DNA of 64,000 nt from Gammaproteobacteria bacterium (lineage in GTDB: Bacteria; Pseudomonadota; Gammaproteobacteria; Burkholderiales; Burkholderiaceae_C), in contig JANYHL010000125.1 of NCBI GenBank assembly GCA_025359085.1, forward strand, positions 841-64,840, read 5' to 3'. A program made the position numbers and the translations under genes. How positions within the stretch are numbered: the stretch's first letter is position 1; every line of letters starts with the position of its first letter. The notes under the pieces were generated by a model that did not search any database, was not told the origin of the DNA, and saw nothing but the letters and a program-made list of their open reading frames with translations. Of the stretch, positions 4,625 through 60,547 are shown piece after piece.

Positions 4625-6247
4625 CTAGACTTTTTCCTGCCGTGCCAGCCACTCGCTCGACAGTAATTTACGGTCGATCTTGCCGTTGGGATTGCGCGGC
4701 AACGGCCCGGTCACCAGTTCGATGCCCGCTGGCACCATGTAGGCGGGCATTCGCATCCGACACTCAGTCCACAAAAAATTTATATCATTCTGGCCTCTAG
4801 CCCTCGTCGCAACTGCGGGAGTAGCTATTATTTGTATAGCATGCCCCAGCACCGGGTGGGCCACGCCAAACGCCACGCACTCGCCCACCAGTTGCGTGGC
4901 ATACAAGATCTCTTCCACTTCGGTCGGACTGACGCGGTAGCCCGAGGTCTTCATCATCTCATCGCGCCGACCGATGAAGTACAGATAGCCTTCTGCATCA
5001 CGACGCACCGTGTCCCCGGAAAAAACCGCGTATTCGGGCAAGGGCAGGCCCGGCTGGCGTCCCGGTGCGTCGGCTGCCAGGAGCTTGTAACGCTCAGCGG
5101 TTTTTTCGATGTCGTTCCAATAGCCCATGCCGACCAGGGCTCCGCGGTGGACCAGTTCGCCGGGCTCGTCCGCCTCGCAGGGCGAGCCATCTTCACGCAA
5201 CACCAAAATCTCGGCGTTCGGAATCGCCTTGCCAATGGAGTCGGGTCGCCGCTCCACCTCTTCGGGCGGCAGGTAGGTGGAACGAAACGCTTCGGTCAGG
5301 CCATACATCAAAAAAGGTTGGGCCTGCGGCACGCGCTGGCGCAGCAGATTGAGGGTTTCACGCGGCATGCGTCCGCCGGTGTTGGCGAAGTAGCGCAGGG
5401 TCCCGTTAATGGATTCTGGCCAGTCCAGTTGCGCCAACTGGATGTACAAGGGCGGCACCGCAGTCAGGCCGGTTACCCCTTCGCGCGCCATCGTCTTTAG
5501 CACATCGCGCGGCAGCAAGTAGTTGAGCAACACCACCCGCGCGCCCACATGAAATGCCGTGGTGAGCTGGCTGAAGCCCGCGTCAAACGACAAAGGCAGC
5601 GCCGCCAGCAGCGTGTCCTGCGCCGTGTTCTCCAGGTAGGACGCCACGCTCTTGGCCCCGGCCACCATATTGCGATGCGACAGCACCACACCTTTGGGGC
5701 GGCCGGTGCTGCCCGAGGTGTAAAGAATGGCGGCCATGTCGGTGTCGATGACCCGATGCCCCGGCCGGGCCGGGCCGTCCAGCAAGTCATTCCAGGCGGT
5801 CAAGCTCCACGCGGCAGTGCCGGGCCGGGTGTCGTCGCCGAGTTCAATCGCAGTGAGCACCACATGCTGCAGGTCCGGGCAAGCCGACAAGGCCTCTTGC
5901 AGCAAAGCCAGGCGTTCGGGCGAGGTCAGCAGCACGCGCACATTGCAGTCACGCAAGATGAAAGCGACCTGCTCCGGCTTCAGCAAGGGGTTGATCGGCA
6001 CAAACACGGCACCCGCCGCAGGTGCGCCAAAACTGGCGATCACGGTCTCGAAGCGTTTTTCAAGGTAGATGGCGAGTCGCTCGCTGCGCCCCAGGCCCAG
6101 GCGCATCAGGCCGGCGGCAAACCGGCTGACATCCGCTTGCAGATCCGCATAACTGCGGCTGGCGGCGCCATCGGTAAGGGCAATCGCCAGCGGCGTGCGC
6201 TGGGCAGTCACAAAAATCAGCTCTGGCAGCAGGGTCGATTCGATCAT
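4625..6247 (-). CDS. AMP-forming acyl/aminoacyl ligase (ANL superfamily), exosortase A system-associated (TIGR03098-like)
   Basis: YTSGSTGRPKG, YGLTE, SGD, KTSGYRVSP and GKIDR adenylation motifs. Likely start MIESTLL at 6247; the longer ORF overlaps the ACP on the opposite strand. Confidence 0.93.
   Translation of the reverse strand: MIESTLLPELIFVTAQRTPLAIALTDGAASRSYADLQADVSRFAAGLMRLGLGRSERLAIYLEKRFETVIASFGAPAAGAVFVPINPLLKPEQVAFILRDCNVRVLLTSPERLALLQEALSACPDLQHVVLTAIELGDDTRPGTAAWSLTAWNDLLDGPARPGHRVIDTDMAAILYTSGSTGRPKGVVLSHRNMVAGAKSVASYLENTAQDTLLAALPLSFDAGFSQLTTAFHVGARVVLLNYLLPRDVLKTMAREGVTGLTAVPPLYIQLAQLDWPESINGTLRYFANTGGRMPRETLNLLRQRVPQAQPFLMYGLTEAFRSTYLPPEEVERRPDSIGKAIPNAEILVLREDGSPCEADEPGELVHRGALVGMGYWNDIEKTAERYKLLAADAPGRQPGLPLPEYAVFSGDTVRRDAEGYLYFIGRRDEMMKTSGYRVSPTEVEEILYATQLVGECVAFGVAHPVLGHAIQIIATPAVATRARGQNDINFLWTECRMRMPAYMVPAGIELVTGPLPRNPNGKIDRKLLSSEWLARQEKV
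4779..4840 (-). repeat. ~60-nt dispersed repeat element, copy 1 (in frame inside the ligase CDS)
   Basis: GCTAT-ACAAATA-ATAGC, 21 nt, then GGCTAGAGGCCAGAATGATATAAA; same architecture as the copies at 35574 and 60485. Confidence 0.75.
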
Positions 6248-6368
6248 GGTTACAAACAATCGTGGCGGTTGAGAAAACGCAAGCACAGAACACTCTGGCG
6301 CTGCACCCTTGGGCACTTGACCCCTAAAATTATTTTCAACAGTCAGGTCGCATACTAGGGAGTTTGAA

Positions 6369-6623
6369 TTGAATATCACACAAGCTGTCGGTCGTGTTAT
6401 TGACGAATCTCTATGTTTGAATGGGCGCAGCGCTACTTTCACGCGCAACACACCGCTGCTGGGCGCGATCCCCGAACTGGACTCGATGGCGGTTGTTGCT
6501 CTCATTACGGCGCTGGAAGAGCAGTTTGGCTTGGTCGTGGACGATGATGACATCGACGGCGCGACGTTTGCCACACTGGGTTCCCTGACCGACTTTGTCA
6601 GTCGCAAACTCGCCGTCACCTGA
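6369..6623 (+). CDS. Acyl carrier protein (ACP1), divergent from the ligase
   Basis: 84 aa, acidic, ELDSMAVVALI phosphopantetheine-Ser motif; TTG start after a GGGAG SD. Confidence 0.9.
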   Translation: MNITQAVGRVIDESLCLNGRSATFTRNTPLLGAIPELDSMAVVALITALEEQFGLVVDDDDIDGATFATLGSLTDFVSRKLAVT

Positions 6624-6673
6624 GCAGCGTTTCACACTCGCCCCAGTTCACCCCACTTTAGCCCGCCGTCCCC

Positions 6674-7600
6674 ATGCCTGTACCCGCCGAGGCCTTCTTC
6701 CTAGCCGCTGTGCCGACTACAACCGGCGCGCCTGACCAGCGGTTTTGCATTTTCTATCCAGCTCAGGGAACGACCGTGCTCGGCTTGGTCCTTTACATCC
6801 ACCCCTTCGCTGAAGAGATGAACAAGGCCCGCCGCATGGCAGCCCTGCAGGCGCGCGCACTGGCGCAAGCGGGCTACGCCGTGCTCCAGCTCGACCTGCA
6901 GGGCTGCGGCGACAGTTCCGGTGACTTCGGCGACGCCACCTGGCAAAACTGGGTCCGCGACGTGGTCTTAGGCAGTCAATGGTTACGCACGCGCCACAAC
7001 GGACCGGGGCCCCAGGGACGCTGCGCCCCGCTCTGGTTGTGGGGCTTGCGCGCCGGTTGCCTGCTGGCGGTCGAGGCGGCCCACCAGCTCGACGCACCCT
7101 GCCACTTTCTGTTCTGGCAGCCCCCGGCGACCGGACGAGCCCTGCTGCAACAGTTCCTGCGCCTGAAGGCGGCAGCCGACCTGCAGAATAACCAGGCCAA
7201 GAGCGTCATGGCCGGCCTGCGCCAGCAGTTGAGCGACGGCTTGCCGGTCGAAATTGCCGGGTACAAATTAGCACCTGAGCTGGCCACCGGTTTAGAGCAG
7301 TCGGTGTTGTTGCCCGCGCCAGCCCAGGCGCCCGGACGTCGGCTTGAATGGCTTGAGCTCTCCACCCGACCGGATGCCGCTTTCAGCCCAGCCTCCCGCC
7401 AAGCCATTGCGCAATTGCAGCAGCGCGGCTTTGAGGTAAACACCCACCTCATTGACGGCCCCGCCTTCTGGCAAACCAGCGAGATCGAAGAAGTGCCGGC
7501 CCTGATAGCAGCGACAACGACAGCCGTCTCATCCAGCAGCGCGCGGGGCGCCAGCGCGCCGTTTCAGCTTGATGCTACCGCGGAGGTACTCGCCGCATGA
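6674..7600 (+). CDS. alpha/beta hydrolase 2, exosortase A system-associated (TIGR03101-like)
   Basis: HPFAEEMNKARR, DLQGCGDS, LWGLRAG elbow, GPAFWQ; overlaps the next gene by ATGA. Confidence 0.88.
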   Translation: MPVPAEAFFLAAVPTTTGAPDQRFCIFYPAQGTTVLGLVLYIHPFAEEMNKARRMAALQARALAQAGYAVLQLDLQGCGDSSGDFGDATWQNWVRDVVLGSQWLRTRHNGPGPQGRCAPLWLWGLRAGCLLAVEAAHQLDAPCHFLFWQPPATGRALLQQFLRLKAAADLQNNQAKSVMAGLRQQLSDGLPVEIAGYKLAPELATGLEQSVLLPAPAQAPGRRLEWLELSTRPDAAFSPASRQAIAQLQQRGFEVNTHLIDGPAFWQTSEIEEVPALIAATTTAVSSSSARGASAPFQLDATAEVLAA

Positions 7601-8481
7601 GCTACACCGAAGAAGCCACCTCTTTTGCTTGCGCAGACGACAATTTGCTGGGGATTCTCTGTCAACCCGACACGCCCGCCCAGACCGGCGTCATCGTGAT
7701 TGTGGGCGGTCCTCAATACCGTGTCGGCAGCCACCGGCAATTCGTGCTGTTGGCACGCGCCCTGGCCGCTGCTGGTTATGCCGTGCTGCGTTTTGACTAT
7801 CGGGGCATGGGCGACAGCGAAGGCCAGCCCAGGCCGTTTGGGGCCGTCAGCGCCGACATTGCGGCTGCCATTGACGTCCTGCAACAACGGGTGGCGTCGG
7901 TCCGGCAAGTGGTCTTATGGGGCTTGTGCGACGGCGCCTCGGCGGCGCTCCTTTATTGTTTCGAGCATGACGATCCTCGCGTGGTCGGCTTGTGTCTGCT
8001 CAACCCCTGGGTTCGCTCCGAGGCCAGTCTGGCGCGAACCCAGATCAAGCATTACTACACGCAGCGTCTGATGCAGAAGACGTTCTGGCAGAAATTACTG
8101 AGTGGCAGAATGGCGCTGGGCGTCCTCAGTGATCTGACCTACAACATCCGGCTATCGACCTCGGGATCAGGCTGGCTGCGCACTGAAAAACAAAGCTTTC
8201 AGCAAAGCATGGCGCTGGCCTGGCAGCGCTTCAGTGGCCAAATATTGTTACTCTTGAGCGGCGATGATTACGTGGCCAAGGAGTTTCTGGAGTATGCCAA
8301 TACGAATGCCGCCTGGAAGGACGCATGGGCCCATGCTCATCTGCAACGCCACAACTTGCCCGAAGTCGATCACACTTGCTCCAGCGCGATGTCGCGCCAA
8401 CGGGTCGAACAACTCACCCTGGACTGGCTGCTACAGCAAGGTGCGTCCACCCACCGCAGCCGTGACGGGATGGCAGCCTGA
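7597..8481 (+). CDS. alpha/beta hydrolase 1, exosortase A system-associated (TIGR03100-like)
   Basis: VGGPQYRVGSHRQF, FDYRGMGDSEG, LWGLCDG nucleophile elbow, LLNPWVR, late DHT. Confidence 0.9.
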   Translation: MSYTEEATSFACADDNLLGILCQPDTPAQTGVIVIVGGPQYRVGSHRQFVLLARALAAAGYAVLRFDYRGMGDSEGQPRPFGAVSADIAAAIDVLQQRVASVRQVVLWGLCDGASAALLYCFEHDDPRVVGLCLLNPWVRSEASLARTQIKHYYTQRLMQKTFWQKLLSGRMALGVLSDLTYNIRLSTSGSGWLRTEKQSFQQSMALAWQRFSGQILLLLSGDDYVAKEFLEYANTNAAWKDAWAHAHLQRHNLPEVDHTCSSAMSRQRVEQLTLDWLLQQGASTHRSRDGMAA

Positions 8482-8599
8482 CATGCACCATCAACGTTTT
8501 GGCCCCCGCGACTGCGCTTTCCCCCATCCCGGCGCGCCAGATGGCCTGGATGACCACGAGGGTCAAAAAAATCATGCTTTATTTCTCGCCAGGGAGTAG

Positions 8600-9862
8600 A
8601 TGATGCTGCAGGCCAACGTCAGGCACGCACAGGACACAGGACGGAAACCGGCCATACCCTGGAATGGACCGAGATCACCCGCACTGACTGCCAACCTGCA
8701 TCCTGAAGGTCGGCTCAATAACCCGCTGCTCAGCGTCGATGTGCTGCGCCAGCTGGATGAAATTCCTTCGGACGTCGCGCGGCTCTTTGCCTGCGCAGAG
8801 CTGCAAAACGTGGAGTCAGGTCTGGCCTGGTACAAGAATTTGGTCAATTCCGTTTATCCAGACCACGACGGACTATTGATCTACATTCTGAGAAAACAGG
8901 GGCAAGCACTGGCACTTCTTCCCGTGCTGAGGCAGGGCAAGTCGGGGGGCTATTGCATCAAGTCGCTCAGCAACTACTACACCACGCTCTACGCGCCGTT
9001 CATCGCACCGGAAGTGACGGTGCATGATTTGGCGCTGCTGCTGAAGACCCTGCGCGATGACCAGTCCCCGCTGGCGTCCTTGCAGTTTTCGCCGATGGAC
9101 CCCGACGCAAGAAGCCACCAACTCTTGCTTGGCGCACTGAAACTTGCCGGGCTGCCGGCCTTTGAATTTTTCTGTTTTGGCAACTGGTACCTGCCTGTGG
9201 CGGACGATTGGCCCCGCTATTTTCGCAACCGGGAGGGCCAACTGCGCAGCACCATTAAACGCATGAGCAAAGCCTTTGTGACCGCCGGGGGCAGCTTGGA
9301 GCTTGTCATGGGAGGGGCCAACCTGGAGCGCGGGATCAATGCCTACCTGAAGGTCTATGCCGCCAGTTGGAAGCGTGCGGAGCCTTACCCTGGTTTCATG
9401 CCGGGCCTGATGCGCGTCTGTGCCGAACACGGCTGGTTGCGACTGGGCATCGCCTGGCTGAATGGTGAGGCCATCGCCGCCCAAACATGGATCGTGGCCA
9501 ACGGCAAAGCCAGCATTTACAAATTGGCCTACGACGAAAGCCATAAAAAACACGCCCCCGGCACACTGTTGACAGCGATGCTGTTGCAACACGTGTTCGA
9601 GCAAGATCAGGTCACGGAGGTCGACTACCTGGTCGGGGATGACCCCTACAAGAAAGCCTGGATGAGTCATCGCCGTGAGCGCTGGGGTATCGTGGCCTAC
9701 AACCCGAAATCACTGCGCGGGCTGTTCGGCTTCAGCCGGGAACTGCTGGGCAGAGCGATAAGAGCAGGCGTGACGCGTGCCATGGCGCTGGTGTCCCCGC
9801 CGAAACAGGCCAAGATTGCAAACGCCACTCCGAACAGCAAGGCCCATGGCAGGGGACCTTAA
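8600..9862 (+). CDS. GNAT-fold (CelD/BcsL-, FemAB-like) acyltransferase
   Basis: RLGIAWLNGEAIAAQ, YKLAYDE, PGTLLTAMLL, EVDYLVGDDPYKKAW. The true start may be downstream of 8600. Confidence 0.8.
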   Translation: MMLQANVRHAQDTGRKPAIPWNGPRSPALTANLHPEGRLNNPLLSVDVLRQLDEIPSDVARLFACAELQNVESGLAWYKNLVNSVYPDHDGLLIYILRKQGQALALLPVLRQGKSGGYCIKSLSNYYTTLYAPFIAPEVTVHDLALLLKTLRDDQSPLASLQFSPMDPDARSHQLLLGALKLAGLPAFEFFCFGNWYLPVADDWPRYFRNREGQLRSTIKRMSKAFVTAGGSLELVMGGANLERGINAYLKVYAASWKRAEPYPGFMPGLMRVCAEHGWLRLGIAWLNGEAIAAQTWIVANGKASIYKLAYDESHKKHAPGTLLTAMLLQHVFEQDQVTEVDYLVGDDPYKKAWMSHRRERWGIVAYNPKSLRGLFGFSRELLGRAIRAGVTRAMALVSPPKQAKIANATPNSKAHGRGP

Positions 9863-9904
9863 TAAAGTTCGCCAAGGCTCTTTCTTCACTTGGAAGGATT
9901 GAAT

Positions 9905-10651
9905 ATGAGATTCGGACCATTGTTAAACCATCATCATCTGCTCGCGGCAATACGAACAGGCGGCGCCGTGCTTCTTGCTTTTTTGACGGGTTTCCATGCA
10001 GCGGCAGACGCACAAGAAGTCCCAGGGGGCTGCGGATCATTGACGCAGCCCTGGGGTCCCTTTGACTACCGTCCTGACCACTACATACCCGAGAACACTT
10101 ACCGGTCACACCGAGCGCTACTCGCAATTGTGGAGCAGGCCCATTTCACACCGGAGGTCGAAATGCTGGCCCGGGGTAAAACCAGCACAACAGCCGGCAA
10201 CGACATCTCCTACACCCTGGGTATTTTCCCCAACCACCATCGCGCCCTGCTGGCCATGGCGGCACTGAGTGACAAGGAGAAGACGGACAAACCCTATGGC
10301 GCACGCTACTCGGTGGAGTGCTTTTTCCGGCGCGCCGTCGCCTGGCGACCTGATGACAATATTGTTCACATGGTTTACGCCAGGTATCTTGCCAAAGCAT
10401 CGCGTGTCGCTGAAGCCGAGCAACAGCTCGGTATCGCAGCCAGCCAGGCCAACGACAACCCGCTGACTCACAACAACCTCGGTTTGATTTACTTCGACAT
10501 GAAGAACTACGGCCAGGCGCTCTTTCATGCGCATAAGGCTTACGCCCTTGGGCTGGAAATATCCGCCCTGCGAAAACAATTGGAAAGCGTCGGCAAATGG
10601 AAAGAACCCCGGTCGGAAGCTGCGCTGGAACCGGTTAAAAATACACAGTGA
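9905..10651 (+). CDS. Exported TPR-repeat protein of unknown function
   Basis: Signal-like segment ending AAADA; CGSL..WGPFDY motif; C-terminal TPR-like helices (HNNLGLIYFDMKNYGQALFHAHKAYALG). ATG 9905 has an AAGGA SD. Confidence 0.7.
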   Translation: MRFGPLLNHHHLLAAIRTGGAVLLAFLTGFHAAADAQEVPGGCGSLTQPWGPFDYRPDHYIPENTYRSHRALLAIVEQAHFTPEVEMLARGKTSTTAGNDISYTLGIFPNHHRALLAMAALSDKEKTDKPYGARYSVECFFRRAVAWRPDDNIVHMVYARYLAKASRVAEAEQQLGIAASQANDNPLTHNNLGLIYFDMKNYGQALFHAHKAYALGLEISALRKQLESVGKWKEPRSEAALEPVKNTQ

Positions 10652-10737
10652 CCCTCCGCCGCCAAGTTGAAGACTTTGCCTCGTGGGCATCGCGATCATG
10701 GGGTGGACCTGACCAGCCAACAAAGGGGTAGTTACAA

Positions 10738-12495: not shown

Positions 12496-12517
12496 CCACG
12501 GGTCTATCGCCAACACG

Positions 12518-14149: not shown

Positions 14150-14172
14150 AGCGGTACAACTCGTCTCATCGT

Positions 14173-16074: not shown

Positions 16075-16077
16075 CCG

Positions 16078-18851: not shown

Positions 18852-18861
18852 CGGACACTCC

Positions 18862-33847: not shown

Positions 33848-35569
33848 ATGGGACCAATGGCAGCGTTATCTCCTCGTTCAATCCAGTGCGACCCGCTGTC
33901 TGCCAGCAGTTTCCCCTTGAACCTTGGTTCTCCCCGGTTTTCCAACGCAGACCTGGACAAGCTCGCCCGAAGTCAGGGTTCCTTGGCGGCCTGGCGACAA
34001 GCGCTGGCCAACGATGCAGTCAGGGCGCTTGCGGGCGTGACGGGCGACTTTGCGGTGGCCTTTATTGAACCGGGTGGCCGCACATTGATGGCGGTGGACC
34101 GCTTTGCAATCCGTTCGTTGTGTTACCGCTTGGACGAGGGAACGTTGCGGTTTGCCGCACGGGTCGATGAACTCGCCGATGCGTCAACTGAAATTGACCC
34201 GCAAGCAATATTTGACTACCTCTACTTTCACGTCATCCCGTCGCCGCGCACCATTTACAAAGGCATTTTTCGGCTGCCGCCGGGTCATTGTGCGGTGTTC
34301 GAGAAGGGCCAACTCACGGTAACGCCGTACTGGACACCGACCTTCGAGGAGCAGCGAGGTGCCTCTTTTGGTGATTTGAAAGATGAGTTCAGACAACTGT
34401 TGCACGACGCCGTGACCCGGCAGCTCGACGGCAGCAAAGCGGCCTGTTTCCTCAGTGGCGGCACCGACAGCTCCACTGTGGCCGGCATGGTGGCCCGGGC
34501 CTGTGGCAAGCCTGGCGCCACTTATTCCATCGGCTTTGACGAACAGGGCTACGATGAAATGGAGTTTGCCCGCCTCGCCGCCAAACACTTTCAGACCGAG
34601 CACCACGAGTACTACGTAACACCCGATGACGTGGTGCGCAGCATCCCGGCGGTGGCGGCCCATTACGACCAGCCCTTTGGCAACTCGTCTGCCCTGCCCG
34701 CCTACTACTGCGCCAAGATGGCACGGGCAGACGGCGTGAGCAAACTGCTGGCGGGGGACGGCGGCGACGAACTCTTTGGCGGCAACACCCGCTATGCCAA
34801 ACAGAAGGTCTTTGGCTGGTATGACCATCTTCCGGCTGGGCTGCGAACGGGGCTGCTGGAACCCCTGTCCAGGTCTTCGGTCATGAACCAGATTCCGCTG
34901 TTGCGCAAGGGCGCCAGCTATGTGAACCAGGCCCAGGTTTCGATGCCCGACCGCATGATGACCTACAACCTGCTGTTTCGCTTGGGCATTCAAGCCATGT
35001 TGAGCCCGGAGCTGCTGGCGCAGGTGGATCAACATGACCCCGCCCGTCAACAAGGCCGCGTCTGGGGCCAGGCCCGTACCGACAACCTGCTCAACCGCAT
35101 GCTGGCCTTTGACTGGCGCTACACGCTGGCCGACTGTGACCTGCCCAAGGTCGTGGGCACGACCGACCTGGCGGGCGTCGGGGTCGGCTTTCCGCTGCTG
35201 GACGACCGGCTCCTGGCCTTCTCGCAAAGACTGCCCCCCAGCTACAAGCTCCAGGGACTCAAGCTGCGCTGGTTCTTTAAAGAGGCGTTACGCGACTTTC
35301 TGCCCGCCGAGATCATTGCCAAAAAAAAGCAAGGTTTCGGCCTGCCGTTTGGCGTGTGGGCCAACGCTCACCCCGCCCTCAAGACCCTGGCGGCCGACTC
35401 GCTCTACAGCTTGGCCAGGCGTGGCGTGGTGCGAACGGATTTTGTTCAAAATCTGCTCGACCAGCGCCTGCCCGAGCACCCGGGTTATTACGGCGAAATG
35501 GTGTGGATTCTGACCATGCTGGAACAGTGGTTGGCGGCGAAGGCACCCCGATTCAGCCTGGCAAATTGA
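33848..35569 (+). CDS. Asparagine-synthetase-like amide ligase lacking the N-terminal Cys, oriented opposite to its neighbours
   Basis: AVDRFAIRSLCY, FLSGGTDSS, AGDGGDELFGG, FPLLDD, KKKQGFGLP. An in-frame TGA at 33824 precludes an MCGI start. Confidence 0.85.
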   Translation: MGPMAALSPRSIQCDPLSASSFPLNLGSPRFSNADLDKLARSQGSLAAWRQALANDAVRALAGVTGDFAVAFIEPGGRTLMAVDRFAIRSLCYRLDEGTLRFAARVDELADASTEIDPQAIFDYLYFHVIPSPRTIYKGIFRLPPGHCAVFEKGQLTVTPYWTPTFEEQRGASFGDLKDEFRQLLHDAVTRQLDGSKAACFLSGGTDSSTVAGMVARACGKPGATYSIGFDEQGYDEMEFARLAAKHFQTEHHEYYVTPDDVVRSIPAVAAHYDQPFGNSSALPAYYCAKMARADGVSKLLAGDGGDELFGGNTRYAKQKVFGWYDHLPAGLRTGLLEPLSRSSVMNQIPLLRKGASYVNQAQVSMPDRMMTYNLLFRLGIQAMLSPELLAQVDQHDPARQQGRVWGQARTDNLLNRMLAFDWRYTLADCDLPKVVGTTDLAGVGVGFPLLDDRLLAFSQRLPPSYKLQGLKLRWFFKEALRDFLPAEIIAKKKQGFGLPFGVWANAHPALKTLAADSLYSLARRGVVRTDFVQNLLDQRLPEHPGYYGEMVWILTMLEQWLAAKAPRFSLAN

Positions 35570-35573
35570 ATTA

Positions 35574-35634
35574 GCTATTTTTTATATAGCAACAAACCAT
35601 TGCTGCACGCTGGCTAGAGGCTCATTTAACTAAA
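35574..35634 (+). repeat. ~60-nt dispersed repeat element, copy 2 (between convergent genes)
   Basis: GCTAT-TTTTTAT-ATAGC, 21 nt, then GGCTAGAGGCTCATTTAACTAAA. Confidence 0.75.
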
Positions 35635-35635
35635 A

Positions 35636-36958
35636 TTATCGGCCAATCGGGAAATACTCGATGCCCTTTGCGCGCACCCATTTTGGGTCATACAGGTTGC
35701 GACCGTCAAAAATCAGGGGCGCTTTGAGATGGGCTTTGACGGCGTCGAAGTCCGGACTGCGAAACTCCTTCCACTCGGTCACGATGACCAGCGCATCGGC
35801 ACCCTCCAACGTGTGCATCGGGGTTTGCGCGTAGCTCAGGCGCGACTCGGTGGCAAAAATTCGCCGGGCTTCGGGCATGGCGGCGGGGTCATAGGCCGTG
35901 AGGGTGGCGCCTGCTGCCAGCAAGTCGGCGACCAAGGCCCGGCTGGGTGCCTCGCGCATGTCATCGGTCTGCGGCTTGAAAGCCAGGCCCCACACGGCAA
36001 AGTGTTTGCCGGTCAGGTCATCGCCCAGGCGGGCTTTGATCTTGTGGCTCAGCACGTGCTTTTGGGCATCGTTGGCAGCCTCGACCGCGCCCAACACCTT
36101 CAGCTCCATGCCAGCCTGGTCGGCCGCAGTCCTGATCAAGGCCTTGACATCCTTTGGAAAGCACGAACCCCCATAGCCGCAGCCGGGGTATAAAAAATCG
36201 TAGCCAATGCGCGGGTCCGAGCCAATGCCTTGGCGCACCATCTCGATGTCGGCCCCCAGCTTTTCAGCCAGGTTGGCCAGCTCGTTCATAAAACTGATGC
36301 GGGTGGCTAGCATGGCGTTTGCAGCATATTTGGTCAGCTCCGCGCTGCGCACATCGGTGACGATCAGGCGGTCGCGGTTGCGCTGAAAGGGGGCGTACAA
36401 AGCACGCATCAGGTACACCGCCTGCTCATTGTCAGCCCCGACCACGATCCGGTCGGGCCGCATGAAGTCTTCAACCGCCGCACCTTCCTTGAGAAACTCC
36501 GGGTTGGACACCACGGCGTAAGGCGTTTCAACGCCGCGCTGGCGCAACTCATGGGCAATGGCTTCCCGCACCTTGTCGGCCGTGCCCACCGGCACTGTGC
36601 TTTTGTTGACCACCAGCTTGTAATCGGTCATTAGGCGCCCGATGTTGCGCGCTGCCACCAACACCTGCTGCAGGTCAGCCGCGCCATCCTCATCAGGCGG
36701 CGTACCGACGGCAATAAACTGGATGGTTCCGTGCTGCACGGTGCGCTCAACATCGGTCGTGAAGTGCATCCGCCCGGCTGCAACATTGCGCTGCACCAGA
36801 TCTTGCAGGGCCGGCTCATAGATCGGGATCAATCCCTCTTCAAGCAGGCGTATCTTCTCGCCATCCAGATCCAGACACATCACATCATTGCCGACTTCGG
36901 CCAGGCAAGCGCCACTGACCAAGCCCACATACCCGGTACCAACCACGGTGACTTTCAT
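35636..36958 (-). CDS. ugd: UDP-glucose 6-dehydrogenase
   Basis: [66 protein letters not shown]. Confidence 0.95.
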
Positions 36959-43576: not shown

Positions 43577-43581
43577 GCTGT

Positions 43582-48937: not shown

Positions 48938-48944
48938 GATGAGT

Positions 48945-49982: not shown

Positions 49983-49989
49983 GGGCGGC

Positions 49990-53158: not shown

Positions 53159-53161
53159 GGG

Positions 53162-54721
53162 TCAGAACTGCACATTGAAACTGACGGTAAGGGCGTTTTC
53201 ACCATAAGGCGCAGTGGCACTGCTATAAACCACGCGCCGAAGGCCAACAGAAGCTGCAGCGTTTTTGCCAACTTTGCCCATGATCTGAATACTCAGCAGG
53301 CGCAGGCGGGTCTCTTGCAAGCTCGATACCCCCGATGTATCTTGTTGTGAGGCCAGAACACCCAGCGAATAATCAGGTGTCAGACGATGCGAATAATTGG
53401 CGCTGAAGCCGTGCTGGCGAAGCACGGATGAAGACGTGAAGTCATCAACACCAGTCGACACCGTGTCAAGCCGACGGCCCTCACTTCGGCTTGCGAGGAA
53501 GGTGATGGTGTCGCGCACCCCCAGCAAGGCAAACGACAAGTCCTGGCGCCGTTGCAAGGACACAGCCGAGGTCAGGGCGTTGCTGATCACCCGGGCGTCA
53601 GGGCTGATGCCGTTACTTTGCAAATAGGCCTTGACCAACTGGGCTCGTGCGACTTCGTTCGGCTCCAGATAAGCAAACTGGCTGAACAAAAGATCGTAGA
53701 TGGCGCCCAGGCCGACACCCCGGGTCTGTTCGGGTCCGGTTGAAACCTCTTTCACATCGGAAAATTTCCAAGCAGTGCGAGCCGTTCGGTGCTCGAAACT
53801 GACATTGTGCGCATCGCCGAAAGGACGCCGGTCCAGTGCCACTGACAATTTACTCGTCTCCGACGGTGACCAGATCACGGCCACACCGCTGGTGTCGTAA
53901 CTTTGCATTTCGACACTGGTGTAATTGTTTTTTTCACGCCCAGCCCTAACCGACACGCTGAGCTGCGGGGTAATGGCATAGGACAAGCCAAGGTTGAGTC
54001 GCTCAGCTTCGGTCTGGCGCCCGACGTTGTAATCGGCAGTTTGCTGGCTGGCATCAGCCAACCAGCCAAGATTGCCAAAGGCACTGTCCGCACCGACCTT
54101 GACGGCAGCATCGACCGTCGTCACACCAGAGCCTAGGGCGGCATCGCTGCTGGTGACGCCCCGGCTGTATCGCACCTCATAGTTGGCAACATTCCCCACG
54201 CGCCCGCGTATATAAGGTGATAACCGGTACGTCGAAACCTCGGCCCGATTGGGGTTGACCGACGTATTGTCCGTGGACGGGGCGCCAAATGCGGAAATCG
54301 CCTGTTGCGAAATAAAGCCACTGAAATCGAGATAAGCCCAGTTGTCGAGAACCTCCAGCGTGCCAAATGTGTTGAGGGCATTTTGCGATTGCCGGGGCGA
54401 GGAGCCTTGCGCGTAAAACAATTCATTGCGTGAATAATCAAAATAAGCCTGAACCCGCGCACCTTCCACGCTGACGCGAATGCCGGGACTGATCTGGGTA
54501 ATTTGTTCAGACTGGGGTGCGGAAGCACTCAGACCCACGTTATCCGTCAGAACTTCGGTGATCGCAAGGCGCGGCACCACCGTCACCACTCGCCGTGGAC
54601 CCGTCTCCGCAACGACGCCCTGCGCACAAGCGCCAACCGACGCCATCACCAACAAACCAGCGCTTGGGACGCGAGCCACCCGCGTCCGCCATGAGCGCAA
54701 TGAAAGCGGGCTGCACATCAT
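53162..54721 (-). CDS. Outer-membrane beta-barrel protein, PEP-CTERM-associated (TIGR03016-like)
   Basis: Signal-like N-terminus, TDNV motif, alternating amphipathic strands, terminal Phe (VSFNVQF). Confidence 0.85.
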   Translation of the reverse strand: MMCSPLSLRSWRTRVARVPSAGLLVMASVGACAQGVVAETGPRRVVTVVPRLAITEVLTDNVGLSASAPQSEQITQISPGIRVSVEGARVQAYFDYSRNELFYAQGSSPRQSQNALNTFGTLEVLDNWAYLDFSGFISQQAISAFGAPSTDNTSVNPNRAEVSTYRLSPYIRGRVGNVANYEVRYSRGVTSSDAALGSGVTTVDAAVKVGADSAFGNLGWLADASQQTADYNVGRQTEAERLNLGLSYAITPQLSVSVRAGREKNNYTSVEMQSYDTSGVAVIWSPSETSKLSVALDRRPFGDAHNVSFEHRTARTAWKFSDVKEVSTGPEQTRGVGLGAIYDLLFSQFAYLEPNEVARAQLVKAYLQSNGISPDARVISNALTSAVSLQRRQDLSFALLGVRDTITFLASRSEGRRLDTVSTGVDDFTSSSVLRQHGFSANYSHRLTPDYSLGVLASQQDTSGVSSLQETRLRLLSIQIMGKVGKNAAASVGLRRVVYSSATAPYGENALTVSFNVQF

Positions 54722-55665
54722 GGCTGCATGGACAGGGACGACAATCCCGGCCGCGCTTGCTCATGGCCGTAGCCATAACCATAGCCGTAGCCCCCCTTGG
54801 CAGCGGTGGTCGCCTGGTTCAACAACATCAACTTCACGGGGCAGGCTTCGATCATGGCCAGCGCTTGTACAACATCTGACTGTAGAGTCTTCCCCGCTTG
54901 CACCACCACCACCACCTGGCCCATGCTGGCGGCCAGCACGCGCGCTTCAGTCGCAAGAAGCAGGGGCGGCGAATCAAAAATCACGATGCGGTCCGTGTAG
55001 CGGGTGGCCATATCCGTGAGCAGTCGGGTCATCGCGTCACTGGCCAGCAATTCAGTCGCTCGGGCATGCGGCGTGCCACTGGGCAACAAGGTCAGTTTGT
55101 CAATGTTCGTTCTCAGCATCACGCTGGACAGATCCTTCGATTCATCGAGCACCAGATCGAGCAAACCCGGGCCATCAGGCAAGCCCATCACCGCCATCAC
55201 CGAGGGACGCGAAACGTCAGCATCCACCAACATGACCGTGTAATCAAGCTCAGTGGCCATGCTCATCGCCAAATTAATGGCGGAAAAAGTCTTTCCTTCA
55301 CCAGGCAATGCGCTGGTGACCATGATCAAGTTGCCATGGGCGACGGCCGAGGCCCCTTTGCCCATGGCATTACTGATCAGCGGCCGCTTGACAACCCGGA
55401 ATTGATCTGCAATTTGGGAGCGCGGCGCATTTGGACTGACAATGCCCGCTCGTGCGAGCGCCTCCAGATCAATGCCAATGCGTCGTGACAGGGTGGTTGA
55501 GCCCAGATCAGGCCCCGTCCTTGCCTCTGCATTTCGAAGGGCCTCGGTCGTCAGGTGCCCGTTGGCATCAGCTGCTTGCGCCGCGGGCGTGGCGGCAGGC
55601 ATCTCGGCCCCGGCCTGGCGAAGTTGTTCCAGGCGCACTGCCGCCTGCTCGATCAAGCTACTCAT
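54718..55665 (-). CDS. BY-kinase (Wzc cytoplasmic half; TIGR03018-like)
   Basis: SALPGEGKTFS, LVDAD, IFDSPP, C-terminal GYGYGYGYG tyrosine cluster. Confidence 0.93.
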   Translation of the reverse strand: MSSLIEQAAVRLEQLRQAGAEMPAATPAAQAADANGHLTTEALRNAEARTGPDLGSTTLSRRIGIDLEALARAGIVSPNAPRSQIADQFRVVKRPLISNAMGKGASAVAHGNLIMVTSALPGEGKTFSAINLAMSMATELDYTVMLVDADVSRPSVMAVMGLPDGPGLLDLVLDESKDLSSVMLRTNIDKLTLLPSGTPHARATELLASDAMTRLLTDMATRYTDRIVIFDSPPLLLATEARVLAASMGQVVVVVQAGKTLQSDVVQALAMIEACPVKLMLLNQATTAAKGGYGYGYGYGHEQARPGLSSLSMQP

Positions 55666-55672
55666 ATTTGAT

Positions 55673-57247
55673 TCATCCTGGCCGTCCGGACATCACGGAA
55701 AACATGATCATCCCGGTTATAAAAACGCCAACCAGGCCACCTGACGCGGCCCAGAACTTTTTCAATTCCAGCTTTTCTTTCAATACCGCCCCCTCGTCCA
55801 TGACCATCGTCACCACACCCAGCAGCGGCAACCCAAGGACCGCCTTCAAAGAACGCGCATCGTAGAAAACAGCACGCAACTGACTGGCAATAAAAGCCGC
55901 GAGCAGGCCGGCGCCCAAGGCGGCTAACAGGGCAAGCGGCATCAACAGCAGACGGTTTGTCGCCACGGGTTGGGGCGAGGCACGCGGCGGATCGATCAAA
56001 CGAAAGTCGGCCATGCCGGCGGCATTGTCGAGATCGCCAGACATGGCGGCCGACTCTCTTCGGGTGACCAAGTCGTTGTAGTTCTTTTTGTTGATGTCGT
56101 AGTCCCGATTCAATTGCGCGAGTTCAGCTTCAATTTGGGGCGCGGTTTTCATCAACTCGCGCGCCCGGGCGAAGCGAGTCTCGTACTCGCCCACTCTGGC
56201 GCGCAAGGCAGCAACCTGCACCTCCGAGGTGGCCAGCAGTCGATTGAGTTCCTGATAAACGAGGCTATTGGCGGACGCGGACGCAGGATTAGCCAACGCG
56301 GTCTTACGCAGTTCCTGCAACTCCTTGCGTTTGGCCCCCTCCAGTTCCTGGATCAACCGCCGGGTTCCAGCTACATCGGGATGTTGCTCTGTAAAACGCT
56401 GCAGCAGTCCATCCAGCTGACGCTTCTGCGCATCGATACGCGCATCAATCTCGGGGGTGGAAATTTGCATGGCCGATTCCTGAAGCAGGCTGCGCGAAGT
56501 GATATTGGCGTTTTGATCTCTTTCGGCGTCGAGCTGACGCTTGGCCGAATCCCGCGCGTTTTCAGCCTCTCGCAACTCCAGGCGTGCCTGGCTCAGTTGA
56601 CTGCTGACAACACCAATCTGGCCAGCCATGTCTCGGCCTTCGGCATTTTGAATTTCAATGTTACGCAGCCTGAATTGCTTTAAACGTGTTTCGGCTTCTT
56701 CAAGCTTTGTCACATAGGACTGGATCTGCTCATCAATGAATTTGCGCGCCGTGGTGGCGTCCTTGCGGCTATCGCCCAGACTGGACTCAATAAAAATTGA
56801 CACCAGAGACTGAACCACCCGCTTGGCCTTGTCAGGGCTTGAGTCACGGTAGGACAAGACATAAAGATTGTCCCGGCCCACGTTCTTGATTTCAAGCGTC
56901 TTCATCAAGCTGTCAATCAAGGCCTCTTGTGCGCTTTTGGACTGGGCCTTCAGATCAAGGTCGGCCATGCGAATAAGCTTTTCAATATTCGGGCGACTGA
57001 TCAGCGTGCGACTCAACATCACCACCTGCTGATCGACATTCGGCTGCACCGCCAGGCCCGACATCAAGGGTTTCAGGATGGACTGGGTGTCCACGTAAAT
57101 ACGGGCGGTCGCCTCGTACTTGTCAGGAACCGACATCACCACAAACATTCCGATTGCGGTTACCACCCAGGCCACAAAAAGACCCAGCCAGCGATGCTTC
57201 CACATGCCTCGGGCGGCGGTGGCTAATTGGTCAATGAGCTCATCCAT
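55673..57247 (-). CDS. Polysaccharide chain-length determinant / co-polymerase (Wzc periplasmic half; TIGR03007-like)
   Basis: Two TM segments flanking a coiled coil; YEATARIYVD, LNRDY, FRLIDPP. Confidence 0.92.
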   Translation of the reverse strand: MDELIDQLATAARGMWKHRWLGLFVAWVVTAIGMFVVMSVPDKYEATARIYVDTQSILKPLMSGLAVQPNVDQQVVMLSRTLISRPNIEKLIRMADLDLKAQSKSAQEALIDSLMKTLEIKNVGRDNLYVLSYRDSSPDKAKRVVQSLVSIFIESSLGDSRKDATTARKFIDEQIQSYVTKLEEAETRLKQFRLRNIEIQNAEGRDMAGQIGVVSSQLSQARLELREAENARDSAKRQLDAERDQNANITSRSLLQESAMQISTPEIDARIDAQKRQLDGLLQRFTEQHPDVAGTRRLIQELEGAKRKELQELRKTALANPASASANSLVYQELNRLLATSEVQVAALRARVGEYETRFARARELMKTAPQIEAELAQLNRDYDINKKNYNDLVTRRESAAMSGDLDNAAGMADFRLIDPPRASPQPVATNRLLLMPLALLAALGAGLLAAFIASQLRAVFYDARSLKAVLGLPLLGVVTMVMDEGAVLKEKLELKKFWAASGGLVGVFITGMIMFSVMSGRPG

Positions 57248-57330
57248 CAGATTTGATCTCGATTGTCAGAGTTGAAACGCGACAATGCCGTCGTCCTGCG
57301 ACGCAGGCCTGCAGCCAGGAGGAAACGGTT

Positions 57331-57963
57331 CTAGAACCAGCCTTGCGGAATAATGAGAACGTCGCCCGGTTTCATCTCTACATTGGCAGAGATATCGCCG
57401 CGCTTGATCAGGTCTTTGAGCCGCACCGAATAGCGCTTGCCGCCCTCCGAGGCACGGGTGATAGAGGCCGCGTTGCCATCAGCAAAGTCGGTCAACCCCC
57501 CCACGGCAATCATCACATCAAGCACCGTCATTTTTTGTTTGTACGGCAAGGCCTGAGGGCGAGCCGCCTCGCCCACCACCCGAATTTGCTCACTGTAAGG
57601 GCCGACAAAACTGGTGACGATGATCGTTACCACTGGATCCCGCACCAGCTTGCTCAAAGCTTTCTCCACATCGCGCGCAATTTCAACCGAGGTCTTGCCT
57701 TGGGCCACCAGCTCATCGACCAACGGTGTGGATACCTTGCCATCAGGACGAACCGGCACGGACAGCGAAAGTTCAGGATTGCGCCAAACGATGATGTTGA
57801 GCATATCGCCCGCACCCACCACATAGTTGTAGTCGGTGGCGGCTGCAGCCATCGGCGCGGGAGGGTAAGATGAATAGCTGGCACAAGCGGCCACCAGTCC
57901 AGCGATTAAACCCAAAGCGACCCAACGGATCGCTGTTTTAGCAATGGCAAAATAACTTTTCAA
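57331..57963 (-). CDS. wza: Wza-like polysaccharide export lipoprotein (TIGR03027-like)
   Basis: Lipobox LVAAC; YVVGAGD, VRPDGKVSTP, IAVGGLTDFA, MKPGDVLIIP; TTG start 57963 after AGGGG. Confidence 0.9.
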   Translation of the reverse strand: MKSYFAIAKTAIRWVALGLIAGLVAACASYSSYPPAPMAAAATDYNYVVGAGDMLNIIVWRNPELSLSVPVRPDGKVSTPLVDELVAQGKTSVEIARDVEKALSKLVRDPVVTIIVTSFVGPYSEQIRVVGEAARPQALPYKQKMTVLDVMIAVGGLTDFADGNAASITRASEGGKRYSVRLKDLIKRGDISANVEMKPGDVLIIPQGWF

Positions 57964-58185
57964 AGCGTATCCCCTGTACAAGTTGAATGCGTCCAAGGGG
58001 CTCGAATACTGAAACTAGTTTTCCGATCCGACTCATGCACCAGCCCCCGAATCACGCTTTGAAGTTTGCGCTGATCGGCACTTGCTAAATTGATATTTCT
58101 CAAGAAACGAAGCACATTGCGCAACGGACCAACGGCAAGTAAATTTCTGCTTTTGCGAGGGTGAAGAACCCTAGAATCAGGCGCT

Positions 58186-58647
58186 ATGACCAAGTTGCTG
58201 ATGGTGTGTATGGGCAATACCTGTCGCTCTCCGATGGCGCGCGCCGTGGCTTGCAAGCTGGCCGCTGAGGCCGGGCTGACGCAGCCATTTGAAGTAGATT
58301 GCGCAGGCACCCACGCGCACCCGCTGGGCGAACGGCCCGACCCCAGGGCCGCGCTGGCGCTGATGCGTCACGGCTATGAACTGGGCCGCGCCCGTTCCCG
58401 AAGAATTGCGGAGCAGGACTTCCACGCCTTCGACCTGATTCTGGCCATGGACATCGTCAATTTGACTGAGCTACGTCGGCTATGCCCGGTCGACCAAATC
58501 CACAAATTGCATCTGTTGCTGAACTTTGCCGAAGGGCTCGAGGGCGTCGAAGTTCCTGATCCGTACTACGGCAACCAGGAAGGATTCGAGCATGTGCTGG
58601 CACTCTGCGAGGCAGGCGCCAGGGGCTTGATTCAGCATTGCCGCTAA
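58186..58647 (+). CDS. wzb: Low-molecular-weight protein tyrosine phosphatase (Wzb-like)
   Basis: CMGNTCRS P-loop, DLILAMD, VPDPYYG; divergent from wza. Confidence 0.9.
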   Translation: MTKLLMVCMGNTCRSPMARAVACKLAAEAGLTQPFEVDCAGTHAHPLGERPDPRAALALMRHGYELGRARSRRIAEQDFHAFDLILAMDIVNLTELRRLCPVDQIHKLHLLLNFAEGLEGVEVPDPYYGNQEGFEHVLALCEAGARGLIQHCR

Positions 58648-58650
58648 CAC

Positions 58651-58669
58651 CGGATATTTTCAATATCCG
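58651..58669. terminator. Hairpin between convergent genes (possible bidirectional terminator)
   Basis: CGGATATT-TTC-AATATCCG perfect 8-bp inverted repeat; no clear U-tract. Confidence 0.45.
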
Positions 58670-58676
58670 CGGCCAA

Positions 58677-59684
58677 CTAAACCTGGTAATAGTCTCGGTA
58701 CCAAGCTACGAAACGGGCAATCCCGTTCTCAATCGGCGTGCCGGGCACGAAGCCGACCCAGTCGCTCAAGGCATCGGTATTGGCATACGTGGCGGGCACA
58801 TCCCCATCCTGCAAAGGCAATAGATTTTTCTCTGCCTTGCGGCCCAGGGCGTTCTCGATACAAGCAATGAAATCAAGCAGCGGCACGGGCTTGTTATTGC
58901 CAATATTGAACACCCGGTAAGGCACGTTGCTGGTAGCCGGGTCGGCCAGCGCGGGGTCATACACCGGATTGGGGCAAGCGACCCGATCCAGCACCCGAAC
59001 GACTCCTTCAACGATATCGTCCACAAAAGTGAAATCCCGCTGCATCTGGCCATAGTTGAAGACGTCGATGGGACGCCCGTCCAGGATCGCCTTGGTGAAC
59101 AAGAACAAAGCCATGTCAGGCCGACCCCAGGGTCCATACACAGTGAAGAAGCGCAGGCCGGTGGTGGGCAAACCATACAAATGACTGTAGGTGTGCGCCA
59201 TCAGTTCATTGGCTTTCTTGGTGGCGGCGTAAAGACTGACCGGATGATCCACGCTGTCATGCTCGGAAAACGGCATCTGGGTGTTGCCGCCGTAAACGCT
59301 GGAACTAGAGGCATACACCAGGTGCTGGACCTGTGAATGGCGGCAAGCTTCCAGCACATTCATAAATCCAATAATGTTGCTGTCAATGTAGGCGTGCGGA
59401 TTTTGCAGGGAGTAACGCACACCGGCCTGCGCCGCCAGGTGAATGACACGGTCAAATTTTTCATCAACAAAAAGCTGCGCCATACCCGGTCGATCCGCCA
59501 CATCCAGCTTAACGAAGCGAAATCCCGCATGCGGTGTCAGGCGCTTGAGGCGATCTTGTTTCAGGGTGACGTCGTAATAGTCATTGAGATTGTCCAGCCC
59601 CAGGACTTCATCACCGCGCGCCAGCAAACGTAGAGCTGTCGCCATGCCAATGAAGCCGGCCGTCCCCGTCAGAAGTATTTTCAT
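58677..59684 (-). CDS. UDP-glucuronate 4-epimerase-like NAD-dependent epimerase
   Basis: [48 protein letters not shown]. Confidence 0.92.
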
Positions 59685-59722
59685 GGATTGATGCTCGATC
59701 AGAAGTTGCTTTTCAGCGCATC

Positions 59723-60082
59723 TTAATGGGTGTGCGGCGGCCAAGCGGCGCCGACCTCAATAACTTCTGCTGGATTGGGAAAAAATGAATTGTCAAACTT
59801 CGCGGCGAGACCTTGCACACCATTCCTGTAGTCAATCCGAAGCACTTTCCCGTCGCACATCAGTTTCAATTTTTGACCGCGAACCGTCAACTCGACGGCA
59901 AAGCACACATGCGAACCCAGCGCTGGCGCCGCTTCTGTTTCAAAATAGATACCGGTTGCGCTGAGGTTGCGGGCCAATCCATCAAGCGTACCCATTTTGA
60001 CCGGCAACACGGTGTCGAATCGAAGCGCACGCCGTTCGTAGTTGAACGGGTTTTTTTTGTCTTGAACTCTCAGGTGCTTCAT
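59723..60082 (-). CDS. Stand-alone PilZ domain protein
   Basis: RRALR (RxxxR) and NLSATG ((D/N)xSxxG) c-di-GMP motifs. Confidence 0.85.
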
Positions 60083-60435
60083 GCTGTGCCAACATCAGAC
60101 TCATACGACGACAAATACAATCAAAGCCCGCCACCGGACAAGCCAAGCTGCTCGACCCGTGAACTATGCAAGAACCGTGCCGAAGATTAAATTAAATTAA
60201 TTAATCTATGCGTATCAATGGGTTAAACCATTACTGCATCGAAGGGTTCAGCTTTTAACACGCTCTTGTGCGGGTTTTGTAAACCTATCCGACACGTCAT
60301 ACAAGCCGGTCTGCGAGGTGCTCAATGGCAATGCCGCGGAAAAACTGCCGATCGGGCCCGGAATTCCCGCAGAAAATTTGATCGGGTAAAGCGGTTGGCT
60401 TTGAAAAAGCAAGCAGCGGTGCCGTGCAAGCCTTG

Positions 60436-60469
60436 CCAGGGTTGTAACAAGACAGGTTTTCAACCCTGG
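60436..60469. promoter_or_regulatory. 9-bp perfect inverted repeat in the intergenic region
   Basis: CCAGGGTTG-N16-CAACCCTGG; function unknown. Confidence 0.35.
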
Positions 60470-60484
60470 ACTGGCGACGAAATA

Positions 60485-60547
60485 ACTATTAATATGATAG
60501 CTGTTGATGCAGTATAGACAAGGGCTAGCGCCAAGTTTCACTTATAA
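60485..60547 (+). repeat. ~60-nt dispersed repeat element, copy 3
   Basis: ACTAT-TAATATG-ATAGC, 21 nt, then GGCTAGCGCCAAGTTTCACTTATAA. Confidence 0.7.

Follow-up and report, generated by a model that had tools for sequence, protein, structure and literature searches.

Results

Three copies of a repeat in the window

The DNA considered here is a stretch of 64,000 nucleotides (the window; C136:841-64840), part of an assembly of 3.16 Mb in 149 contigs with 59.7% GC that was scanned in full. The window carries three copies of a short AT-rich repeat, one inside a gene for an acyl-CoA-ligase-like protein and two between genes. The copies follow the pattern [GA]CTAT-N7-ATAGC-N21-GGCTAG, which matches three times in the window compared with 0.00 expected from 100 dinucleotide-preserving shuffles. 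The original prediction, made from the letters of the window, had named the three copies with their anatomy and proposed a comparison with shuffled sequence. The copies are present at the positions named, with profile borders slightly wider than first noted, and the pattern stands above the controls. The features are as follows.

4773 to 4842, minus strand: copy 1 (profile match of 54.5 bits), inside the C-terminal domain of the acyl-CoA-ligase-like gene, read in frame as AIQIIATPAVATRARGQNDINF
35569 to 35641, plus strand: copy 2 (profile match of 45.8 bits), placed from the sequence, open reading frames (ORFs) and Pfam
60480 to 60551, plus strand: copy 3 (profile match of 50.3 bits), intergenic, placed from the sequence and Pfam
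4625 to 6220, minus strand: host gene of copy 1, AMP-binding acyl-CoA ligase-like, in an exopolysaccharide locus (PF00501, 272.9 bits; PF13193, 34.3 bits)
60610 to 60678, minus strand: tentative decayed fourth copy, spotted by eye in an alignment, GCTAT-TGGATCA-AAGCT...GGGGTGACAG...TTATAAATTTT

The ORF 4625-6619(-) runs unbroken through copy 1, and the Pfam AMP-binding_C alignment spans the copy without a break (residues 434-514 aligned to model positions 1-76). The same site in the ligase is filled in seven other genomes of the genus; in a genome with few or no copies (G014) and in out-of-family orthologues it holds GC-rich native sequence that is 1-4 residues shorter.

Copy 2 occupies the entire gap between the convergent genes for an asparagine-synthase-like protein and a UDP-glucose dehydrogenase. 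It abuts the stop codon of the former (TGA, 35567-35569) and encloses that of the latter (TAA, reverse strand, 35636-35638). An empty-site comparison at this copy was uninformative, the relatives being too divergent and synteny being broken. The genes around copy 3 are one for a universal stress protein (60709-61101, minus), with the copy downstream of it, and one for an epimerase, with the copy upstream of it; the copy is antisense to both. Its region is 100% identical in the metagenome-assembled genome (MAG) GCA_043726205.1 and in the run SRR20627842, and is uninformative as a close-strain comparison. The possible decayed copy would face copy 3 tail to tail at a distance of about 60 bp; it was not recovered by nhmmer, even at E<100.

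Regarding the extent of the ligase gene, its longest ORF (4625-6619, minus strand, 664 residues) reaches about 130 codons beyond the likely start (MIESTLL...) on the upstream side and shares 28 nt with the next gene at its 3' end. The Pfam domains begin at residue 5 in the 531-residue version.

A discrete block conserved in sequence at fixed spacing

The strict pattern has 61 matches genome-wide, compared with none for the pattern read backwards. Relaxing both spacings adds a single match, thus the spacing is rigid, and the invariant spacing proposed from three copies is borne out across the genome. When 60 strict copies were aligned with their flanks, information content was confined to the interval from about -4 to +66, counted from the start of GCTAT, and the flanks returned abruptly to about 60% GC. 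This defines the repeat as a discrete unit, AT-rich and about 70 bp long.

From 5' to 3', an AT-rich 5' arm that holds a weak palindrome (GCTAT-N7-ATAGC) is followed by the central block, ATAGC(T)-N21-GGGCTAG, then by a short GC palindrome, GGGCTAGAGCCC, and last by an AT-rich tail, ATTT..TAAATTT. Among 262 full copies, ATAGC is conserved at 95-100%, GGGCTA at 90-99% and ACG at 84-87%. The 5' arm GCTAT is conserved at only 49-80%, and the invariant 3' arm shows no compensating changes. The 21-nt spacer, first described as variable, is not free; it follows a lineage-specific consensus, which in the source genome (G000) is TACTTACGCATATTCCACGGG. Pairwise identity among the full copies averages 59% and reaches at most 82%.

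We found no sign of a conserved fold among the 262 copies: RNAalifold gave -0.66 for the forward and -0.23 for the reverse strand, and mutual information was without Watson-Crick covariation. Rfam, which had been put forward as a place to look, returned no match over the whole window at gathering thresholds. The conserved property is sequence at fixed spacing, not fold.

The hallmarks of several kinds of mobile repeat are also missing. There is no identity diagonal between 5' and 3' flanks across 413 copies that would mark a target-site duplication, and there are no terminal inverted repeats, the ends sharing only AT-richness. No inverted dimers were found that resemble REPINs or bacterial interspersed mosaic elements (BIMEs), which are built from repetitive extragenic palindromic (REP) sequences; the 11 neighboring pairs within 400 bp are mostly in direct orientation. 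Orientation shows no dependence on GC skew or on the strand of local genes (p = 0.4 to 0.96). Neither of two tags known from REPs is conserved. The reverse complement reads G[T/C]AGCTAT, in which conservation at the pair of positions needed for GTAG reaches only 44-53%. Of a CGTC tag, the first three bases (CGT, complementary to ACG) are conserved at 84-87% but the fourth at only 43%. Readings of the repeat as a sigma-70 or sigma-54 promoter, a LysR box or an ops/JUMPstart element were judged on the sequence and rejected, as spacing or orientation did not fit.

Copy number and placement in the genome

A profile built from the strict copies detects 438 copies at E<0.01, of which about 241-262 are nearly full length. 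This corresponds to one copy per 7 kb and to 0.86% of the genome, so that the family is genome-wide, as had been expected. Genes were called with a crude codon-bias caller (2654 genes, 87% coverage). The 267 intergenic copies comprise 75 in convergent gaps, 149 in same-direction gaps, 27 in divergent gaps and 16 at contig edges. Copies thus prefer convergent to divergent gaps (75 versus 27), whereas the genome as a whole has more divergent than convergent gaps (268 versus 195). In same-direction gaps, 75 copies have the orientation of the genes and 74 the opposite one.

The remaining 171 of the 438 copies are inside ORFs, 122 of them at least 150 nt from both ORF ends and 105 in high-scoring ORFs (about 97 host genes). 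The intragenic share is 28-39%. Orientation relative to the host gene is again even (84 versus 87).

Intragenic copies are read in two preferred frames

Two of the six possible frames account for 74 of the 88 intragenic copies that score at least 30 bits; the other four frames account for 14. In the same-strand frame (37 copies) the repeat encodes a peptide close to AIxxIAAxAxSTGA[R/T]GQNDINF, and in the opposite-strand frame (37 copies) one close to [K/E]FxxNxALAPVEYAQxAIKxIA. Hosts named by eye from their translations include PurL and DnaX (two copies each), HrpA, a UvrA-like protein, IleS, YgiQ, the signal peptide of GspD, TruB, XseA, Pgi and WaaA. Protein alignments and annotation in this clade contain segments derived from the repeat (…AIxxIAAxAxSTGARGQND… and …FKxNxALAPVEYAQxAIKxIA…) that should not be taken for native domains.

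Codon use within the copies departs strongly from that elsewhere in the genome. ATA makes up 53% of isoleucine codons in copies (3.8% elsewhere), AGA and AGG together 52% of arginine codons (4.6% elsewhere), GCT 47% of alanine codons (9% elsewhere) and CTA 32% of leucine codons (1.4% elsewhere). This skew indicates a constraint at the DNA level, and we count it in favor of the interpretation proposed below. The tetranucleotide CTAG occurs 1285 times in the genome, about one ninth of the 11,425 occurrences that base composition would predict, and 20% of these 1285 are inside repeat copies.

In one host, a GspD-type secretin by eye (C28:3340-5439), a copy makes up most of the N-terminal signal-peptide region (MKLRAAADSKNAIYLIAACAIMTGATVLFPVNLLAQT...). 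The repeat may supply the functional signal sequence of this protein, or the true start may lie downstream.

A second, GC-rich repeat was seen outside the window. It contains CCGTTCGGGCTGAGCCTGTCGAAGC (reverse complement ...TCGACAGGCTCAGCCCGAACGG...), its component 16-mers occur up to 17 times, and it is read in frame as ...STGSARTD... within IleS (C127:29578-32571) and HrpA (C115:7695-11612). The other GC-rich 16-mers CTTGGGGCGGCCCGGC and TCGCCCCGCCGGGCGAAAGAG occur 12-17 times in the genome.

Length gains in host genes point to entry of the repeat as a block

Ten intragenic sites were measured against out-of-family orthologues, with the exception of YgiQ, for which no such match exists and G007 and G035 from the genus served instead. 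Every one of the ten sites shows a net gain in length:

XseA: +23 residues
YgiQ: +19 to +22 residues (versus G007 and G035)
WaaA: +12 to +19 residues
UvrA-like: +15 residues
Pgi: +8 residues by span comparison, +15 by alignment
PurL, site 2: +10 to +13 residues
RlmD-like: +7 to +9 residues
PurL, site 1: +5 to +8 residues
TruB: +3 to +4 residues
Ligase (copy 1): +1 to +4 residues

In XseA the repeat is a clean insertion of 23 residues (69 nt) relative to orthologues from three other families, and it is present in all genus members examined, partly trimmed in some. Because the maximum gain equals the length of the repeat and no site shows a loss, the data argue that the repeat reached these sites as a block of about 69 nt.

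At the two sites with small gains the full-length repeat stands in for native sequence: TruB has the peptide KLKLALAPVDIEHEAIKIIAK instead of the native beta-hairpin before the CSKGTYIR motif, and in the ligase AIQIIATPA... takes the place of the native strand AIAIIATPA.... The insertion may have been followed by a deletion of native residues, or the block may have overwritten them.

Copies at fixed sites keep the spacer version of their own genome

The consensus of the 21-nt spacer differs among genomes of the genus:

G000 (source genome): as given above
G009: TATCAGCCCTTTATNTATAAG
G025: TGCTTGCGCAGGCTGTACTTG

The copy in truB is at the identical position in eight genomes, and in each it carries the spacer version, or dialect, of its own genome. 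It reads ...ATAAAGGGC... in G009 and G010, ...TGCGCAAGCAGCTAT in G020, ...CCTGCGCAACCAGCTAT in G025 and ...GTGGATATTGA... in G000; G005 and G028 carry close variants. The turn of TruB that is encoded by the copy shifts with the dialect, for example PVDIEHE versus PLWSLRNQ. The copy in the ligase likewise carries the dialect of its own genome.

A related pattern is found in a genome of another genus (G156). Fourteen of its copies, picked partly for their similar spacers, have an invariant 32-nt center, ATAGCTGCTCCCGCGATATTCT[A/G]TTGGGCTAG, and most of the G156 copies listed share that spacer. Outside the invariant center, hardly any position of the 5' arms, N7 loops and tails is the same across the 14 copies.

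In genomes with few or no copies, the orthologous copies that we examined (HrpA in G014, G001 and G062; the ligase, truB and the flank of the RAYT gene described below in G014; the latter flank in G062) have drifted to GC-rich synonymous codons. More distant genomes that are rich in the repeat retain the core at orthologous sites. These comparisons show that copies at fixed orthologous sites keep the central-block version of their genome rather than decaying. Neither the decay of relics nor a recent burst of whole repeats can yield such patterns, which therefore argue that, in each lineage, the central block is acted upon in trans.

A single RAYT gene is flanked by two copies

The original prediction had suggested looking for an enzyme of the type of the REP-associated tyrosine transposases (RAYTs). 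The source genome has one such gene:

C107:4418-5122: RAYT (Y1/HUH transposase, 234 residues; NCBIfam NF047646, 84.7 bits with a cut-off of 80; Pfam Y1_Tnp)

It is bracketed by two full-length copies of the repeat, both antisense to it, one 50 bp upstream (4301-4368) and one overlapping its 3' end (5112-5164). Only 13 of the 2654 genes are flanked by copies on both sides, and the RAYT gene is the only mobile-element-like one among them. The remaining twelve have the look of ordinary housekeeping genes, judged by eye from the translations of ten and with no family search. No autonomous insertion sequence with matching ends was seen, and no systematic search for one was made.

The copy at the 3' end of the RAYT gene is at the same place in G005, G031, G021, G028 and G020, and a weaker form of it is found in G009 and G025. 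Three other genera have it (G207, G119 and G081) and four more have a weaker form; in repeat-poor genomes it is absent or decayed. We considered whether the decayed flank in G014 belongs to a different repeat family and rejected this, as its sequence is unique in that genome.

The RAYT gene is intact in 41 of 41 genomes of the genus and in 139 of 151 genera, and its HUH motif and catalytic tyrosine are invariant in 16 aligned genomes of the genus, including repeat-free ones. Its conservation across genera suggests a domesticated, vertically inherited gene with a role beyond the repeat. The gene is directly upstream of one encoding 1577 residues (locus C107:4418-10028), which from its N-terminal sequence looks like gltB (glutamate synthase large subunit).

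Distribution across genomes

A profile search of 37 genomes of the genus gave 68 to at least 80 matches each in 21 genomes, with at least 80 in most of these, 1-14 matches in eight and none in eight. Among 24 genomes from other families of the order, 23 had no match and one had a single match. Within the same large family, with one genome taken for each of 150 genera, some 20-25 genera have clearly more matches to ATAGC-N21-GGCTAG than to the reversed pattern, and the count goes as high as 84. With one exception, the repeat-bearing genera are those with a RAYT at least 63% identical to that of the source genome, which points to a single subclade of the family. The repeat family is thus not restricted to the genus and is patchy over a Comamonadaceae-type subclade. 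When the exact pattern was scanned against a collection of named genomes, from which very near records may be left out, only Rhodoferax sp. TH121 and a Polaromonas MAG matched, both of them outside the genus; the relatives with many copies were not among the matches.

Discussion

A proposed REP-like element kept uniform in trans

The repeat had been proposed to be REP-like or a protein-recognized site on one side and a transposable element of the miniature inverted-repeat type (MITE) on the other. The first part is supported, given that the repeat is genome-wide, conserved in sequence and found on both sides of a RAYT gene. The second is not supported: terminal inverted repeats, target duplication and near-identical copies are all absent. 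Two features had not been foreseen, namely the share of copies (28-39%) that genes read in frame and the concerted change of copies at fixed sites. The explanation that we favor, with a probability of about 0.45, is that of a REP-like element that was inserted as a block, is tolerated in frame within genes and is kept uniform by a sequence-specific agent, most likely the candidate RAYT that two copies flank. The repeat persists where its harm is small, namely in convergent gaps, in operon gaps and within proteins in two of the six frames, where the peptide it encodes can even replace a native strand-loop segment. Under the favored explanation, its uniformity would be made by an agent acting in trans that recognizes the central block as sequence and not as a hairpin. 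The candidate RAYT would cleave at the conserved borders and transfer the block from copy to copy, by copying or by exchange, and occasionally to new sites.

Several observations weigh against this explanation. The defining hairpin of REPs is absent, and the copies are singletons instead of inverted pairs. There is no orientation bias relative to GC skew, as would be expected from recent single-strand transposition, and with no pair of copies above 82% identity the source genome shows no sign of recent copying. The small gains in truB and in the ligase (+1 to +4) require an additional deletion or true over-writing. As for the enzyme, every repeat-bearing genome has the RAYT gene, but so do nearly all repeat-free ones, and neither its presence or absence nor the loss of its active site correlates with repeat status. 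The two copies beside it are in direct and not in inverted orientation, and the copy at its 3' end could be an inherited ancient insertion. The RAYT is the best candidate agent, yet it is insufficient to explain where the repeat family survives.

A stronger version of the proposal, which we consider doubtful, is concerted re-writing. A sequence-specific enzyme, either the domesticated RAYT or some partner of it, would time and again carry a block of about 30 nt from one to another of hundreds of fixed sites. The full set would thereby shift jointly within each lineage, and pieces of essential proteins would be overwritten, such as the beta-hairpin of TruB and the C-terminal strand of the ligase.

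Alternative explanations

The same data raise the possibility of a motif akin to DNA uptake signals. DNA uptake is guided by uptake signal sequences (USS) in Pasteurellaceae and by DNA uptake sequences (DUS) in Neisseriaceae. Here, a receptor would prefer the central block, transformation and homologous recombination would fix the motif site by site, genes included, and dialects would follow the drift of the receptor. Such a process accounts well for orthologous copies that carry the dialect of their own genome (DUS reportedly have dialects as well), for the uniformity of the central block alone in G156, for the equal frequency of both orientations with no replication bias, and for the joint decay in some lineages that is expected after loss of one trans-acting factor. 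It predicts change in place with no change in length. The sites in truB (+4) and in the ligase (+1 to +4) fit this prediction, whereas the 23-residue block in XseA and the gain at all ten sites do not. Moreover, the repeat is a sharp-edged block of about 70 bp with up to 32 contiguous specified bases, compared with uptake cores of 9-12 bp, and its density is one per 7 kb, compared with about one per kb for USS and DUS. To our knowledge, natural competence with a sequence preference is not known in this bacterial family. We therefore regard an uptake signal as unlikely, albeit worth serious consideration.

It is also conceivable that the copies are binding sites of a chromosome-organizing or other host protein, held in place by local purifying selection with no mobility or drive after their initial spread. 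Local functions of this kind, in nucleoid structure, supercoiling or transcript ends, have been proposed for REPs and BIMEs with gyrase and integration host factor. Binding sites would be consistent with conservation of sequence at rigid spacing and not of fold, with a core kept at orthologous sites across deep divergence and rare codons kept in genes, with the preference for gene ends and convergent gaps, and with the concentration in copies of the otherwise strongly avoided CTAG. It is hard to credit, however, that hundreds of sites, including some in essential proteins, were re-tuned to a 21-nt dialect in each lineage; moreover, entire lineages live without the repeat family. This makes the explanation quite unlikely.

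We consider it improbable that the family is a classical selfish miniature transposon, similar to MITEs or to the Rickettsia palindromic elements (RPEs), whose transposase is lost or elsewhere and whose copies are neutral relics that are tolerated inside genes. The block insertion in XseA, the residence in frame as for RPEs, the mean identity of 59%, which suggests age, and the patchy distribution with decay in some lineages would all suit such relics. But terminal inverted repeats and a target-site duplication are missing, and the dialect data contradict the idea, as independent decay cannot give genome-specific dialects at orthologous sites. Nor can it give an invariant 32-nt core beside scrambled arms, and rare AT-rich codons persist across species while flanking synonymous sites differ.

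Finally, a family of structured non-coding RNAs or of transcription signals (promoters or terminators) is scarcely credible, as the resemblance of the tail to a -10 box (TATAAT/TATAAA) and of GGGC-TAGA-GCCC followed by ATTT to a very weak terminator is set against the lack of an Rfam match, the weak consensus fold (-0.66) with no covariation, the random orientation relative to flanking genes (75/74) and inside genes (84/87), and the under-representation of copies in divergent, promoter-bearing gaps.

Comparison with known repeat systems

A search of the literature by topic and by sequence string yielded no description of the repeat family in the papers covered, and the strings matched only unrelated primers. 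If the favored explanation is true, an element of the REP or RPE type resides in free-living, environmentally common betaproteobacteria, where it is found in about a hundred protein genes of one genome and dictates the local amino-acid sequence. It would then offer a tractable case for what RAYTs and REP-like repeats do, and for how a cell keeps hundreds of dispersed sequences uniform.

Among known systems, MITEs are comparable as small non-coding repeats that are able to extend or interrupt ORFs in frame, as in Coxiella burnetii (PMC5896051; bacterial MITEs are reviewed in PMC10969869). Unlike them, the repeat lacks terminal inverted repeats and a target duplication, and no parent insertion sequence of it was seen.

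The similarities to USS and DUS extend to definition by sequence, presence in both orientations, preferred frames in genes, lineage dialects and AT-rich flanks. The repeat differs from them in having 16 to 32 specified bases within a 70-bp block, in being seven-fold sparser and in that at least some of its copies arose by block insertion.

RPEs are said to comprise the families RPE-1 to RPE-8. They share with the repeat the read-through in frame within conserved proteins, the preference for certain frames, old insertions that are common to several species, and even truB as a host. The repeat, in contrast, belongs to a free-living betaproteobacterial clade and not to obligate intracellular bacteria, forms no stable palindrome, and remains tuned to the dialect of its lineage at orthologous sites instead of simply diverging. 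RPE-4 and RPE-6 have been equated with REPs that carry the CGTC tag (PMC3733652).

The closest parallel is with REPs and their RAYT genes, the 'REPtrons'. REPs tagged with GTAG or CGTC favor convergent and same-direction gaps, overlap stop codons and are associated with RAYT REPtrons (Di Nocera et al. 2013, PMC3733652), and some are inside genes, truB and uvrA among them (PMC3733652). Comamonadaceae were not treated in that study (PMC3733652); our comparison with REPs, BIMEs and REPtrons also rests on Nunvar 2010 (PMC2817692) and Bertels & Rainey 2011 (PMC3116915). Like REPs, the repeat has hundreds of short copies in convergent and same-direction gaps near stop codons and shows no target duplication. 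A RAYT gene that is single-copy and vertically inherited has copies beside it and overlapping it, and some copies are in genes (truB, uvrA). Unlike REPs, which are GC-rich hairpins of 20-40 nt, it is an AT-rich element of about 70 bp in a genome of 60% GC with an uncompensated 5-bp stem. It has no conserved GTAG or CGTC tag, occurs as singletons instead of inverted dimers, is intragenic in 28-39% of cases and is outlasted by the RAYT gene. The repeat family shares the behaviors of REPs and fails their structural definition (hairpin, tag and dimers). Two further properties are unusual, namely a very high proportion of intragenic copies and the keeping of lineage dialects at fixed sites.

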